From a virus (Duplodnaviria; Heunggongvirae; Uroviricota; Caudoviricetes), in the IMG/VR virus record IMGVR_UViG_2778261576_000005, positions 1-37,529 of that record: a DNA stretch of 37,529 nucleotides; one strand, written 5' to 3'. Every line of letters starts with the position of its first letter. Within the stretch, counting starts at the first letter, position 1. The notes under the pieces are model-generated. The model was not told the origin of the DNA, did no database searches, and worked only from the letters and a program-made list of their open reading frames with translations. Of this stretch, positions 28,619 to 32,627 are shown piece after piece. A program made the position numbers and the translations under genes.

Positions 28619-28839
28619 GCTGCACCTCCGAGATGCTTCATGTTTTTTCCGGAGCAAAAGGCTATAAGCGGCATACTGACGCGGTAATTACGGCCCAGCG
28701 GTTCACAAACCACCTTCTGACATTCACGGTCAACCAGGCTAACACGTAGAACATGCCCTGCAGGCGTGGTGTACCACTGACCGGGGCGAGGACAACGGAA
28801 AGTCTGATTGGTAAATCGTTTGAAAATATTCCGGATCAT
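28615..28839 (-). CDS. Small Cys-containing basic protein, translationally coupled between Rha and replication gene
   Basis: 74 aa; ATGA overlaps at both ends; four Cys residues. Confidence 0.45.
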   Translation of the reverse strand: MIRNIFKRFTNQTFRCPRPGQWYTTPAGHVLRVSLVDRECQKVVCEPLGRNYRVSMPLIAFCSGKNMKHLGGAA

Positions 28840-29987
28840 TTGCGCCCCCTTACCTCTGAAGAGTTCAGCGACGAATGAATAAGACGGGCAAGAAATGCCG
28901 CATCGTTAATTCGGTCATACAGACTTACAGCCAGCGGTGATTCAGCTTTTTCCAGCATGGGATAAAGCTGCTGCAACCAGACCTGATGAATTGATGAAAT
29001 GTAGGAACAGAGAACGCTGGCGTTATGTGCAACGTCGCTCGGTACAGCGGGCTTTGAAAGCTGTTTCTCCATCTGGTTAAAGGCATTGATATATGCCTCT
29101 TTGAACTGGGCAGCACGTTTACCCGTGAAACCCATAGCAAGAAACGCAAAACCGTCGCGTGTGATTTGGTAGCAAGGAAGTTTGCGACCTGTGCAATCAG
29201 TGTAATCACTCACCGAAAAATTGCGGGCAGTGAATGATGCTGAGCATTCAAGCGTGCGGATCTTTTTCAGTACATCGTCATGACGTTTGGAGAAGAAGTT
29301 GGCAACAGCCAGGGATGAAGTAACAGCCTGACCATCAACGATGGCAATTTCAGGTTGAGTGAGGGTTGGGATCGTAGCCATGATGGCAGCCTCTTTGGTG
29401 ATTTTTAATAACTCACCACCAAGGCTTTCCACGACCTTATTGGTGGTGAGACATACAGGGGTGGAAATACCGGTCACCAAAGAACCCGGCCCAACCGAAG
29501 TTGGCCCTGCACGCCCCACCATAATTTGGGCGTAATGCTGCTCATGACACAAAAAAACCGCAAGAGCGCGGTTGTGCGCTTTGGTGAATTCCGGGTTTCC
29601 ACGCCCGGCACCCGTTTTATAAGGTGCCTGAACAGTGTAACGTCCCGGAATGGCAGAATCAATGTGCTGGTGGTCCTTCACACTCAACAAAATCACGCCT
29701 GAATTTCCACAAAGGACTAAAGCACTCATGCGGGTAGTCTTTGCGAAGATAGATAACGCGCTGTGTTTCTGGCTCCCAACGAATAACATGAACATAAAGT
29801 CCTCTTCCGTCACGAAACCAGCGGTTAAGTTCCTGCACAACTCGCCCCCCACAGTCAGGTAAAGTTCTCTGTGGTTACTTACAGCCAGGTGATTTGGTAA
29901 TCTGCATTCATGCCGTAACAACAGGTGTGCAGCGACACTGACCACCAGCTGTTGCGACAAACGGTTATTTGCCGTTAAACTGTTCAT
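28836..29987 (-). CDS. Rha-family regulatory domain protein (Rha domain from internal ATG 29381; 202-codon open N-terminal extension)
   Basis: Rha motifs in the C-terminal half; ORF start at 29987 makes an ATGA overlap with the upstream gene stop. Confidence 0.55.
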   Translation of the reverse strand: MNSLTANNRLSQQLVVSVAAHLLLRHECRLPNHLAVSNHRELYLTVGGELCRNLTAGFVTEEDFMFMLFVGSQKHSALSIFAKTTRMSALVLCGNSGVILLSVKDHQHIDSAIPGRYTVQAPYKTGAGRGNPEFTKAHNRALAVFLCHEQHYAQIMVGRAGPTSVGPGSLVTGISTPVCLTTNKVVESLGGELLKITKEAAIMATIPTLTQPEIAIVDGQAVTSSLAVANFFSKRHDDVLKKIRTLECSASFTARNFSVSDYTDCTGRKLPCYQITRDGFAFLAMGFTGKRAAQFKEAYINAFNQMEKQLSKPAVPSDVAHNASVLCSYISSIHQVWLQQLYPMLEKAESPLAVSLYDRINDAAFLARLIHSSLNSSEVRGRK

Positions 29988-30568
29988 GCGTTAGTTTCTC
30001 CACAACCAGAAGCAATCGACGCCACGACGCCCGGAGCTGCACACTCGCGGGCGTTACTCTTTTCCGGCGCACAAAAAACACGAAATAACAGTGTTAAATG
30101 CTCCTGCCACTTCGCCATTACTTGGTAGCTGTTCTCTTCGATTTGCTCACGCTCAGCTTGGTCAATAACTCCATCAGCAGTTGCCTTGCGTAAGTACTGG
30201 GAATGCTTGCCAATCCATTCTATTGACTCCATCAGCCGCTGATTAATGTCACCATTGTCAATGTCATCAATGACCACCAGCGGCACAAACACCCCATTAC
30301 TACGACGGGCTATTGCATCTGTTACATGCCTGGTACCACTGGCATCCTGTAAAACCATGGCCCACTCAAGTGGAAAAATTTGATCCCCACCGCTACGCAG
30401 TCTGTTATGCAATTGATCTTTTGCTGGGGTGATATCATCAGATTTATACAAACCAAGAATTTCTGCTGCTTCCTCATAGCCATGAGGTAAATCAGCAATC
30501 GTTCTTCGTATTGCTGCCACCAGCCATGCTGGTTGTTTATCAACTTTCCATTCAGGTTCTTTACCCAC
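29984..30568 (-). CDS. YmfL-like early regulator (cII-position gene)
   Basis: 194 aa directly downstream of cro-like gene. Confidence 0.45.
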   Translation of the reverse strand: MGKEPEWKVDKQPAWLVAAIRRTIADLPHGYEEAAEILGLYKSDDITPAKDQLHNRLRSGGDQIFPLEWAMVLQDASGTRHVTDAIARRSNGVFVPLVVIDDIDNGDINQRLMESIEWIGKHSQYLRKATADGVIDQAEREQIEENSYQVMAKWQEHLTLLFRVFCAPEKSNARECAAPGVVASIASGCGETNA

Positions 30569-30595
30569 GGTTAATTCCTCATTTCTGTGGTGTTT

Positions 30596-30793
30596 TTATG
30601 CCGCAGCACTGTTAGTCTTTTGATATAAAGACACGTCAACTTTCAGTTTCCCGTTAGTAATTTTTTCTAACTGGTACGCTCGGCCTTCAGGAATAATCTC
30701 AGGCCACTCTGAAACAGACGGATGCTTAATACCTAGGGCTTCGGCGGTTTTACAAACTCCGCCGAAATAATTAATCACGTCGGATTTCCGCAT
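30596..30793 (-). CDS. Cro-like repressor (YdaS/Cro family HTH)
   Basis: 65 aa; divergent from the CI gene across the operator region; GGAGA SD. Confidence 0.7.
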   Translation of the reverse strand: MRKSDVINYFGGVCKTAEALGIKHPSVSEWPEIIPEGRAYQLEKITNGKLKVDVSLYQKTNSAAA

Positions 30794-30825
30794 TTCTGTC
30801 TCCCGTTAAATTACGTTAAGCAGAA

Positions 30826-30890
30826 ATGTAGGATATCCAACATACCAATGTCAAGAATCCTACATGGGCATGTGGTAGGATTGCCTACAT
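30826..30890. promoter_or_regulatory. OR region: three operator repeats with divergent PR (minus) and PRM (plus)
   Basis: ATGTAGGATATCCAACAT at 30826-30843 plus two related sites at about 30848-30865 and 30870-30890; minus-strand TTGACA-17-CTACAT upstream of cro. Confidence 0.6.
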
Positions 30891-31542
30891 GATGAACATG
30901 AGTGATCGTATTCGCCAAAGGCGAAAAGAACTGAACCTGACACAACAAGCACTGGCTGATTTGACTGGTGTGAACCGTGTCACGGTTACTGGATGGGAAA
31001 AGGACGACTACCAACCAAATGGAGCCAACCTTCAAGCCCTAGCCAACGCACTTAAATGCGATCCTCTGTGGCTTGTTAGCGGAAAAGGCTCGCCTGAACC
31101 AAAGATAAATCTAAAACCTGAAATATTCGCAGTTAAAAAAGTCCCCCTCATCTCGTGGGTTCAGGCGGGTTCATGGACAATGACGGAGCCTGGTGTCAGG
31201 AAAGAAGATGCTGAAGAGTGGGTTTATACTACCGCCCTTGTATCAGAAATGGCATTTGCACTACGGGTCCGTGGTGATTCAATGACCAATCCCCTCGGCT
31301 CACCATCGATACCAGAAGGTTCTATCGTTATCGTAGAGCCAGATATTATTGATACAGAGTGTATTAACGGAAAAATCGTTGTTGCCCATATCAATGGTGG
31401 GCAAGAAGCGACACTCAAAAAATTTGTTGAGGACTGGCCGAACAGGTATCTCGTCCCACTAAATCCTAACTATAAAACTATTGAATGCGGTGAGAACTGC
31501 AGAATAGTTGGTCTTGTCAAACAAGTAATAATGGATTTTTGA
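30889..31542 (+). CDS. CI-type prophage repressor (HTH plus S24 LexA-like autopeptidase)
   Basis: N-terminal XRE-type HTH; C-terminal GDSM Ser nucleophile and conserved Lys. Confidence 0.85.
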   Translation: MMNMSDRIRQRRKELNLTQQALADLTGVNRVTVTGWEKDDYQPNGANLQALANALKCDPLWLVSGKGSPEPKINLKPEIFAVKKVPLISWVQAGSWTMTEPGVRKEDAEEWVYTTALVSEMAFALRVRGDSMTNPLGSPSIPEGSIVIVEPDIIDTECINGKIVVAHINGGQEATLKKFVEDWPNRYLVPLNPNYKTIECGENCRIVGLVKQVIMDF

Positions 31543-31566
31543 CACATCTTCCTCACTATCGCAAAA

Positions 31567-31588
31567 CCGGGGTATCCCCGGTTTTTTT
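31567..31588 (+). terminator. Intrinsic terminator after the CI gene
   Basis: CCGGGG-tat-CCCCGG followed by seven T. Confidence 0.7.
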
Positions 31589-31604
31589 ATGAGCCTATCT
31601 TTTT

Positions 31605-31658
31605 ATGTAGGATAACCAACATAAACTCTTGACACTCACATGTTGGATATCCTACATT
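31605..31658 (+). promoter_or_regulatory. OL/PL: two operator repeats bracketing TTGACA-N18-TACATT
   Basis: ATGTAGGATAACCAACAT at 31605-31622 and its near reverse complement at 31640-31657; -35 at 31629-31634. Confidence 0.6.
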
Positions 31659-31663
31659 TGTTT

Positions 31664-31752
31664 TTAGAGTTGTGGTGAATGCGCAGGCTGATGCGCGAAA
31701 GACATTGCAGCTATTGCGGAAAAGAGCTGTTCGGCGGGGCCATTAAACGCCC
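31664..31752 (+). repeat. 89-bp direct repeat, copy 1
   Basis: Identical to 32292-32380 except two mismatches; contains a GCGCA-N6-TGCGC hairpin and a GCTCTTTT-complement motif. Confidence 0.85.
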
Positions 31753-31856
31753 ATATCTGGAGGTTAAAGAACAAAATGAAAGTCCAGATTTTAAACAATA
31801 ACTGTGAAGTCGTTTGGGCGTAAAACATGACCGCGCGTAGACCAAGGGAGGAAAAA

Positions 31857-32033
31857 GTGGGAATAGTTAGAAATCAAGCAGATATATTGAAAATCAGCTC
31901 TGAATTGCTTGGAGTTTTGAAAAGTGAGCTCACCGCACATGGCATCGAGCCCACTGACGAAAATTTAAGTTGGGTTTTGTCGATTATTCAACAATCACTC
32001 AAGCCCAGCCTCAGCAAACTTTTTATCGAGTAG
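31857..32033 (+). CDS. Small hypothetical protein (58 aa from GTG 31857; alternative ATG 31827 gives an Arg-rich N-terminus)
   Basis: GGGAGG SD 5 nt before GTG; within the AT-rich cassette; 3' end overlaps the convergent ORF. Confidence 0.4.
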   Translation: MGIVRNQADILKISSELLGVLKSELTAHGIEPTDENLSWVLSIIQQSLKPSLSKLFIE

Positions 32034-32186
32034 TGCTTCGAACTTATCGTAAAGCTTGCTTATGTCGTCTATCGGGTTTTCTGACGTACTGTAATTTTTA
32101 TCTGATGTCATGGCAGCAGTCTGATATGCAGTGTGAGTCTTAACCGATAGTTGGAATAAATAAAGAATTTTTTCTTCTTTGGTCAT
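31995..32186 (-). CDS. Small hypothetical protein (63 aa)
   Basis: AAGGAAA SD 5 nt before ATG at 32186; MTKEEKILYLFQL...; within the AT-rich cassette. Confidence 0.45.
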   Translation of the reverse strand: MTKEEKILYLFQLSVKTHTAYQTAAMTSDKNYSTSENPIDDISKLYDKFEALLDKKFAEAGLE

Positions 32187-32291
32187 AACTATTTCCTTCT
32201 TGGCTATATGAAAACACCAAGATACCACCGAGCCTGAAGTGGTGAAAAGACAGGCACATAACAGCTAAGTATTTTCAACCAGAGAGAATCC

Positions 32292-32380
32292 TTAGCGTTG
32301 TGGTGAATGCGCAGGCTGATGCGCGAAAGACATTGCAGCTATTGCGGAAAAGAGCTGTTCGGCGGGGCAATTAAACGCCC
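32292..32380 (+). repeat. 89-bp direct repeat, copy 2
   Basis: See copy 1; the copies flank a roughly 540-bp AT-rich segment. Confidence 0.85.
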
Positions 32381-32627
32381 GTGAGAGTCTGAAATAACCG
32401 CAAGCCGGAGATCAGCACCGGTCACCACAACAGCCACTGCTTTGGCGGTACCAGTTTGTACACTTGCTTCCGGCTGGTACCGCTCTTTTTACAAAACAGA
32501 GAAGAGCATCACCGGACGACGGGCTCATAACCCAATCCATCCGGGCGTCTGCCACCGCAGGTGTTCTTCTCTGTTTTGTGGAGAAACCAACCGACCTTGC
32601 AGGGTCGATATGATGAGGAGCAGCAAA

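Follow-up and report, generated by a model that had tools for sequence, protein, structure and literature searches.

A predicted immunity region of the P22/phage 21 type with its own operator half-site, and a covarying RNA motif downstream of PL, in an enterobacterial phage genome

We analyzed a stretch of 37,529 nucleotides from IMG/VR virus record IMGVR_UViG_2778261576_000005 (hereafter, the window). The repressor gene cI (plus strand) and the cro gene (minus strand) are divergent and lie 95 bp apart with three operator-like sites between them, and two further sites are located downstream of cI. The features of the region are as follows, counted from the first letter of the window.

29984 to 30568, minus strand: gene for a CII-like activator (194 aa), the second gene of the PR operon; Pfam Phage_CP76 (E = 1.3e-6) and phrog_101 'CII-like transcriptional activator' (E = 3.4e-62).
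30596 to 30793, minus strand: cro (65 aa); Pfam P22_Cro (E = 7.6e-22).
30825 to 30854, minus strand: PR, with TTGACA (30854–30849), an 18-nt spacer and TACATT (30830–30825); predicted start at about 30817–30821.
30826 to 30843, no strand: OR1, ATGTAGGATATCCAACAT, spanning the PR spacer and −10.
30848 to 30865, no strand: OR2 (weak), ATGTCAAGAATCCTACAT, 22 bp from OR1.
30873 to 30881, plus strand: candidate extended −10 of PRM (TGgTAGGAT), read from the sequence and invariant in relatives.
30873 to 30890, no strand: OR3, TGGTAGGATTGCCTACAT, lying over the cI start codon and the candidate −10 of PRM, 25 bp from OR2.
30889 to 31542, plus strand: cI repressor gene (217 aa); Pfam HTH_3 and Peptidase_S24.
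31563 to 31590, plus strand: cI intrinsic terminator, AAAACCGGGG-TAT-CCCCGGTTTTTTT and then a U-run.
31605 to 31622, no strand: OL2, ATGTAGGATAACCAACAT, 35 bp from OL1.
31629 to 31658, plus strand: PL, with TTGACA (31629–31634), an 18-nt spacer and TACATT; predicted start at about 31660–31666.
31640 to 31657, no strand: OL1, ATGTTGGATATCCTACAT, the exact reverse complement of OR1, spanning the PL spacer and −10.

CI carries an N-terminal HTH, an Ala93-Gly94 cleavage site and a Ser131/Lys178 dyad, and A93, G94, S131 and K178 all fall in invariant columns of the repressor alignment. Its first 65 residues match the DNA-binding domain of P22 c2 (2r1j; E = 5.7e-14), and the protein also matches full-length lambda CI (3bdn; E = 7e-25) with the VQAG site, the GDSM serine and the LKK lysine aligned. 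The closest named repressors are that of mEp390 (61% identity), followed by P22 c2 and phage 21 CI (44–46%; 45% overall in the case of c2), and Cro shares 48% identity with its counterpart in the P22-like phage Phi75. The gap between cro and the CII-like gene measures only 27 nt, and the ORFs downstream of PL had no Pfam match.

The initial annotation described an 18-bp near-palindromic operator occurring three times in OR and twice in OL, with one of the OL copies inverted. When the 37.5-kb window was searched for the 18-mer with up to three mismatches, strong near-palindromes were found at three places only, namely 30826–30843 (OR1, exact match), 31605–31622 (OL2, one mismatch) and 31640–31657 (OL1, an inverted copy without mismatch), against 0.01 expected in shuffled sequences; each place matches on both strands because the sites are near-palindromic. 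The description of OL was therefore confirmed, whereas OR contains one strong copy only, and its two further sites, OR2 and OR3, are degenerate. A weight matrix derived from the six strong half-sites, ATGT(A/T)GGAT, gave the strong sites 27–29 bits (OR1 29.2, OL1 29.2 and OL2 27.3), and OR3 (14.5 bits) and OR2 (11.7 bits) ranked fourth and fifth in the whole window; the five top matches in 37.5 kb all fall inside the two expected intergenic regions. OR3 deviates from the symmetric consensus at four positions and extends over the cI ATG; OR2 deviates at five, with one perfect half-site, 14.6 bits for its right half, and a left half that coincides with the PR −35. Among the sites, the outer positions (TGTAGG) are conserved and the centre is variable (ATAT in OR1 and OL1, ATAA in OL2, ATTG in OR3). 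Centre-to-centre spacing is 22 and 25 bp in OR, and 35 bp between OL1 and OL2, the only two OL sites found.

The same arrangement was found in phage mEp390, Yersinia phage YeP1 and a prophage of Enterobacter sp. kpr-6. These have the operator layout of the window and half-sites of the GTAGGAT type, their recognition helices are almost the same, and their CI proteins are only 61–65% identical to that of the window. Note that a wider profile search of genome contigs with the CI alignment returned mostly distant repressors, and that the Enterobacter prophage alone was informative. In the shared layout, OR1 has the form TAGTAGGATATCTnACAT, a half-site adjoins the PR −35, a nearly invariant OR3 (TGGTAGGATTRCCTACAT) lies over the repressor ATG, and a terminator precedes a pair of OL sites on either side of TTGACA. 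The PL hexamers and their spacing (TTGACA-18-TACATT) are identical in all three relatives. They differ from the window in the outer operator bases (TAGTAGGAT, AAGTAAGAT) and in PR, which reads TTGACY-18-TACTAT. In alignments of the four lineages, the half-sites and promoter hexamers are invariant, whereas the spacers between sites differ.

These data bear on whether the right operator is tripartite, since OR1, OL1 and OL2 might be the only real repressor sites and OR2 and OR3 incidental half-site matches. The two scores are unexceptional on their own, as the best site per shuffled window averages 12.9 bits, and the left half of OR2 is simply the PR −35, while its length varies among relatives (19 bp, not 18, in mEp390 and Enterobacter). 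However, the fourth and fifth best matches of the entire window both lie within the 47 bp separating OR1 from the cI start, the distances of 22 and 25 bp agree with P22, and OR3 is the most conserved intergenic block in the four lineages; the right half-site of OR2 is also largely kept in relatives (invariant TCC.AC). Because of this position, P22-like spacing and conservation, we took OR2 and OR3 as real sites and regard an incidental origin as unlikely.

A promoter scan of 30400–32500 detected PR and PL as the sole two promoters matching 10 of the 12 consensus positions. In agreement with the earlier statement that the two are identically built with an operator in the spacer and −10, both read TTGACA-18 nt-TACATT with the operator in that place, and a comparison of coordinates showed that operators overlap the −35 or −10 of the early promoters. 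The repeats are thus located at lambdoid operator positions, over strong promoters of the sigma-70 type directed away from cI, which supports, at the level of sequence, the interpretation as an immunity region. PR and PL are also the arms of a 40-nt inverted repeat with 83% identity that reaches beyond the 18-mer, as would be expected if one promoter had recently been duplicated in inverted orientation and the likeness had nothing to do with operator function. Yet the two-promoter design, OL2 and OR3 are kept in relatives with CI proteins of 61–65% identity, and it is mainly the half-sites and hexamers that are conserved, so that we consider such a duplication very improbable. An origin of the palindromes by chance or as restriction sites was ruled out by the shuffles and by the conservation in relatives.

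PRM was not called in the promoter scan because a −35 match is absent, and no PRM −35 element was found. The candidate extended −10 of PRM would yield a leaderless cI mRNA starting at A30889. The block 30873–30890 (TGGTAGGATTRCCTACATG) is the most conserved part of the cro-cI spacer in the four lineages and combines OR3, the possible TGnTAGGAT element and the cI ATG, which also suggests a leaderless cI mRNA.

On the other side of cI, the terminator lies between the cI stop (31542) and OL2, and consists of a hairpin (AAAACCGGGG-TAT-CCCCGGTTTT) followed by T's (−17 kcal/mol, z = −3.9); OL begins 15–20 nt further downstream. The OL copies had been placed downstream of the CI terminator, and the coordinates (hairpin and U-run at 31563–31590, OL2 and OL1 at 31605–31657) agree with this. 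A hairpin with a T-run occupies the same place after cI in the three relatives.

The initial annotation had also proposed a comparison of the operator with known lambdoid immunity groups, which gave a P22/21-type format and spacing with a half-site different from that of P22. The synthetic P22 operator consensus is ATTTAAGATATCTTAAAT, and each half of the symmetric consensus of the window, ATGTAGGATATCCTACAT, departs from it at positions 3 and 6 and nowhere else. Specifically, the half-site is ATGTAGGAT in the window and ATTTAAGAT in P22, with changes of T to G at position 3 and of A to G at position 6. P22 combines the half-site TTTAAGAT with the recognition helix SNVAISQWE, whereas NRVTVTGWE is the helix of the window and of mEp390, and SRVTVTGWE that of YeP1, and all three carry GTAGGAT-type half-sites. 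In place of the ATTTAAG half-site and SNVAISQ helix of the P22/21 specificity group, the window has ATGTAGG and NRVTVTG; since both half-site and helix are unlike those of P22/21, the window would have a different specificity and is presumably hetero-immune.

The correspondence between operator type and CI recognition helix across phages also argues against the palindromes serving a regulator other than CI and Cro, for example host LexA or a Rha/antirepressor module. The TGT...ACA in the site superficially resembles an SOS box. However, TGT and ACA are 8 nt apart in the LexA consensus and 10 nt apart here (TGT-N10-ACA), so that a LexA box was ruled out, and the arrangement of the sites is the canonical one for CI and Cro; another regulator is therefore hardly credible.

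As in P22 and phage 21, whose immunity regions are almost identical to each other, the operators of the window are 18 bp long with two-fold symmetry, conserved at the outer positions and variable in the centre, the repressor has a homologous DNA-binding domain, Cro belongs to the P22_Cro family, OR3 adjoins the repressor start codon, and OL1 lies over the PL spacer and −10. In a scan applied uniformly to all, OR spacing was 22/25 bp in the window and 23/25 bp in both Phi75 and imm21, and OL spacing was 35 bp throughout. The P22 repressor binds six rotationally symmetric sites, contacting operator positions 2–7 and 12–17, and reads the uncontacted centre (positions 8–11) indirectly with a preference for A/T (PMC4267663). 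Besides the half-site and the recognition helix, three differences from P22 were found. First, P22 immC has OL1–3, while two OL sites were found in the window. Second, OR2 lies in the spacer and OR1 at −10/+1 of P22 PR, whereas OR1 lies in the spacer and −10 and OR2 over the −35 of the window's PR; the PR hexamers of the window are ~13 bp nearer to cro than those of P22, and therefore OR1 rather than OR2 fills the spacer. This construction, in which OR1 is placed at PR as OL1 is at PL, is common to the window and the three relatives. Given this placement, the affinity order and PRM activation of P22 are not simply transferable. Third, P22/21 relatives have boxA/boxB after PL, where the window has an RNA motif and a terminator and where no N/nut module was seen.

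The likeness to phage lambda is more general and concerns the gene order and logic, including cI followed by OL/PL on the same strand, and the C-terminal S24 domain of CI, for which the alignment spans 200 residues and includes the Ala-Gly site and the Ser/Lys dyad; a leaderless cI mRNA, as in lambda, is plausible in the window. On the other hand, the 17-bp operators of lambda have an unrelated sequence, its Cro is of another fold family than the Cro of the window, and rexAB lies between its cI and OL.

Taken together, the region is most probably (we estimate about 0.87) the immunity switch by which a temperate enterobacterial phage chooses between lysis and lysogeny, structurally of the P22/phage 21 type but with an operator specificity of its own. 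We infer the binding of CI and Cro, the order of affinities, cooperativity, the transcription starts and PRM, and such a switch would work as follows. CI dimers would bind the 18-bp two-fold symmetric operators with the half-site ATGT(A/T)GGAT. Since OR1 and OL1, with their A/T centre (ATAT), lie over the spacer and −10, bound CI would exclude RNA polymerase from PR and PL. OR2, 22 bp from OR1 with one good half-site and located over the PR −35, would be filled cooperatively. OR3 would be a weaker site at which excess CI, or Cro, turns off cI, a negative autoregulation expected from the overlap of OR3 with the cI ATG and the candidate extended −10. Upon SOS induction, RecA would stimulate self-cleavage of CI at Ala93-Gly94 via Ser131 and Lys178, after which PR and PL would fire and Cro (P22_Cro family) would take the same sites.

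The immunity region is present at 99% identity or more in vB_EcoM-720R4, SKA5, Lys8385Vzw and several Stx2c-converting phages, and in 140 of 5426 complete E. coli genomes (~2.6%). The GenBank records of vB_EcoM-720R4 and Lys8385Vzw contain no operator or promoter annotation here, the operator 12-mer and the RNA core strings occurred in no paper of the literature searched, and none of the mEp390 papers found was about immunity. As judged from sequence, the window is a member of the P22/21 structural family with a separate immunity specificity, and would add a new operator specificity, common in E. coli, to a well-understood kind of repressor switch. The operator sequence and promoters are thereby defined for an immunity group that is found in ~2.6% of complete E. 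coli genomes and to which Stx2c-converting phages belong, and the change from SNVAISQ to NRVTVTG provides a natural specificity variant of the P22 repressor-operator pair that is useful for recognition-code studies.

The more unusual feature of the locus, compared with the ordinary immunity switch, is the RNA motif that follows PL. The corresponding features are as follows.

31669 to 31752, plus strand: truncated 5' copy of the RNA motif, with the P1 5' strand, the P2 hairpin and part of the insert, 3–9 nt past the predicted PL start.
32297 to 32431, plus strand: complete RNA motif, with P1 (GTTGTGG/CCACAAC), P2 hairpin (loop GGCTGA), insert and P3 hairpin (loop AGATCAGCA).
32444 to 32492, plus strand: terminator-like 13-bp hairpin and U-run between the RNA motif and yfdP (yfdP/yfdQ/yfdR); z = −2.6.

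An 89-nt direct repeat (31664–31752 and 32292–32380) begins directly after PL. In the complete unit at 32297–32431, the outermost 10 nt at each end form a perfect inverted repeat, and the parts are a closing stem P1, a P2 hairpin (loop GGCUGA), a variable insert of ~10–230 nt that is sometimes a whole tRNA, and a P3 hairpin (loop AGAUCAGCA). The two loops are conserved, and UCAGC in P3 is complementary to GCUGA in P2 over 5 nt; as this GCUGA/UCAGC pairing is invariant, it is conservation that supports it. The terminator-like hairpin at 32444–32492 stands ahead of the yfd genes, implying that early-left expression needs read-through. Its 3' side (CGCTCTTTTTACAA) resembles boxA. The two copies of the direct repeat enclose a 539-bp insert (31753–32291), which is shared with Shigella phage SfII and contains ORFs of 68 aa (31827–32033, plus strand; phrog_15476) and 77 aa (31995–32228, minus strand; phrog_2605). 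Lys8385Vzw and the Stx2c phages have one repeat copy and lack the 539 bp, apparently a cassette that was acquired by recombination via the 5' part of the RNA motif.

Copies more than 96% identical to the RNA motif were found in P1-like phages (80 nt after tRNA-Thr), the virulent phage IME207, mEp460 and Stx2a phages, as well as, unannotated, in 849 of 5426 E. coli genomes, with one to three copies per genome. More distant phages retain the two ends alone, with a middle part of different sequence and length. Exact-pattern scans of IMG/VR with the 5' module and the 3' module each gave at least 120 loci, and 126 distinct instances of 64–296 nt were extracted from the matches listed. P1 occurs as GCAGA/TCTGC, TTGGA/TCCAA, GTAGG/CCTAC, GGTC/GACC and others, and P2 as GCGCA/TGCGC, GCGTA/TACGC, GAGCA/TGCTC, GCACA/TGTGC and GCCCG/CGGGC. 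An alignment of 67 sequences had double changes at 14 of 22 pairs, a score reached by none of 500 shuffles, and pairing dropped from 96% to 25–47% when the partners were slid. Note that the instance finder had demanded pairing, which biases this count, and the test was therefore repeated with instances anchored on the two exact conserved modules only. In these, the inner five P1 pairs were paired in 89–98% of instances (49–86% with shuffled partners) with three or four Watson-Crick pair types at each position, and P2 pairs 2–5 were always paired with two to five pair types each. All three helices (P1, P2 and P3) covary, and G-U pairs favour the PL-transcribed strand. Single-sequence folding was uninformative (z = −0.4 to −2.5).

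As for the surroundings among the 126 instances listed, a same-strand tRNA lies within 600 nt in 22 (occasionally the insert itself is a full tRNA), a terminator follows in 29, and a ribosome-binding site with a start codon follows in 40. A boxA-like GCTCTT is found upstream of the motif in only 18 of 124 instances, and some such stretches directly follow a tRNA 3' end. In the virulent Klebsiella phage BUCT_49532 (L090, 560–1141 and 1201–1350), the motif follows an HNH endonuclease gene at a distance of ~60 nt, and a strong terminator marks its end.

The RNA motif of the window had no match in Rfam 15 at the gathering score, nor at E ≤ 5 in a search of 31540–32460; the sole match in that search was a chance-level Termite-leu (31548–31630, minus strand, E = 0.05) away from the motif. 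In eight further loci, Rfam 15 matched only tRNA and an IS frameshift element. Other identities were rejected as well. A small gene was excluded as the 25-aa ORF MRRLMRERHCSYCGKELFGGAIKRP is lost in divergent copies and has no PHROG match, and ARAGORN found no tRNA in the window. The motif shares with YrlA a closing stem of the 5' and 3' ends around a sometimes tRNA-like module, but the GNCGAA signature and an Rfam YrlA match are absent. With HK022 put it shares the position of a promoter-proximal structured RNA at the PL start ahead of a terminator, but no HK022 match was present among 51 BLAST records, and, in contrast to put and YrlA, the motif also occurs in virulent phages and beside tRNA genes. 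A high-copy MITE is unlikely given one to three copies per genome and ends that covary rather than being conserved. The motif is new relative to Rfam 15, and it may be among the thousands of unnamed phage candidate RNAs catalogued from IMG/VR (PMC10690425).

In the phage of the window and its relatives, the RNA motif stands between PL and the terminator preceding the early genes. Tentatively, and with more doubt than confidence, we suggest that the first segment transcribed from PL belongs to a widespread, undescribed class of structured phage RNAs without an assigned function. One possibility is a stable RNA made at the immediate-early stage, such as a decoy or an anti-defence RNA; another is a cis-acting control of read-through at the downstream terminator, taking the place of N/nut. 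If functional, it would constitute a new phage RNA class tied to early transcription and tRNA regions. The PL leaders of YeP1 (L004, 2828–2900) and Enterobacter (L010, 1965–2040) share CAACAGCGAACAGGCAGGACGCCCACGAAGTAGC, a sequence similar to the CAGCAGGACGC leader that precedes nutL in P22 and phage 21; in the window, a leader of this type is replaced by the RNA motif.

A further RNA-related observation was made in the PR operon, where Rfam matches to C4 antisense RNA (29439–29526, minus strand, 81 bits) and isrK (29551–29627, minus strand, 68 bits) lie inside the N-terminal half of an apparent 383-aa ORF (28836–29987), exactly at a Pfam 'Phage_ASH' match. This suggests that the 'Ash' protein match is a translated RNA gene, and the Rha-family antirepressor in this ORF probably starts near residue 213. 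The region looks like a P1/P7 immI-like RNA-controlled antirepressor module, which, if true, would constitute a second layer of immunity.
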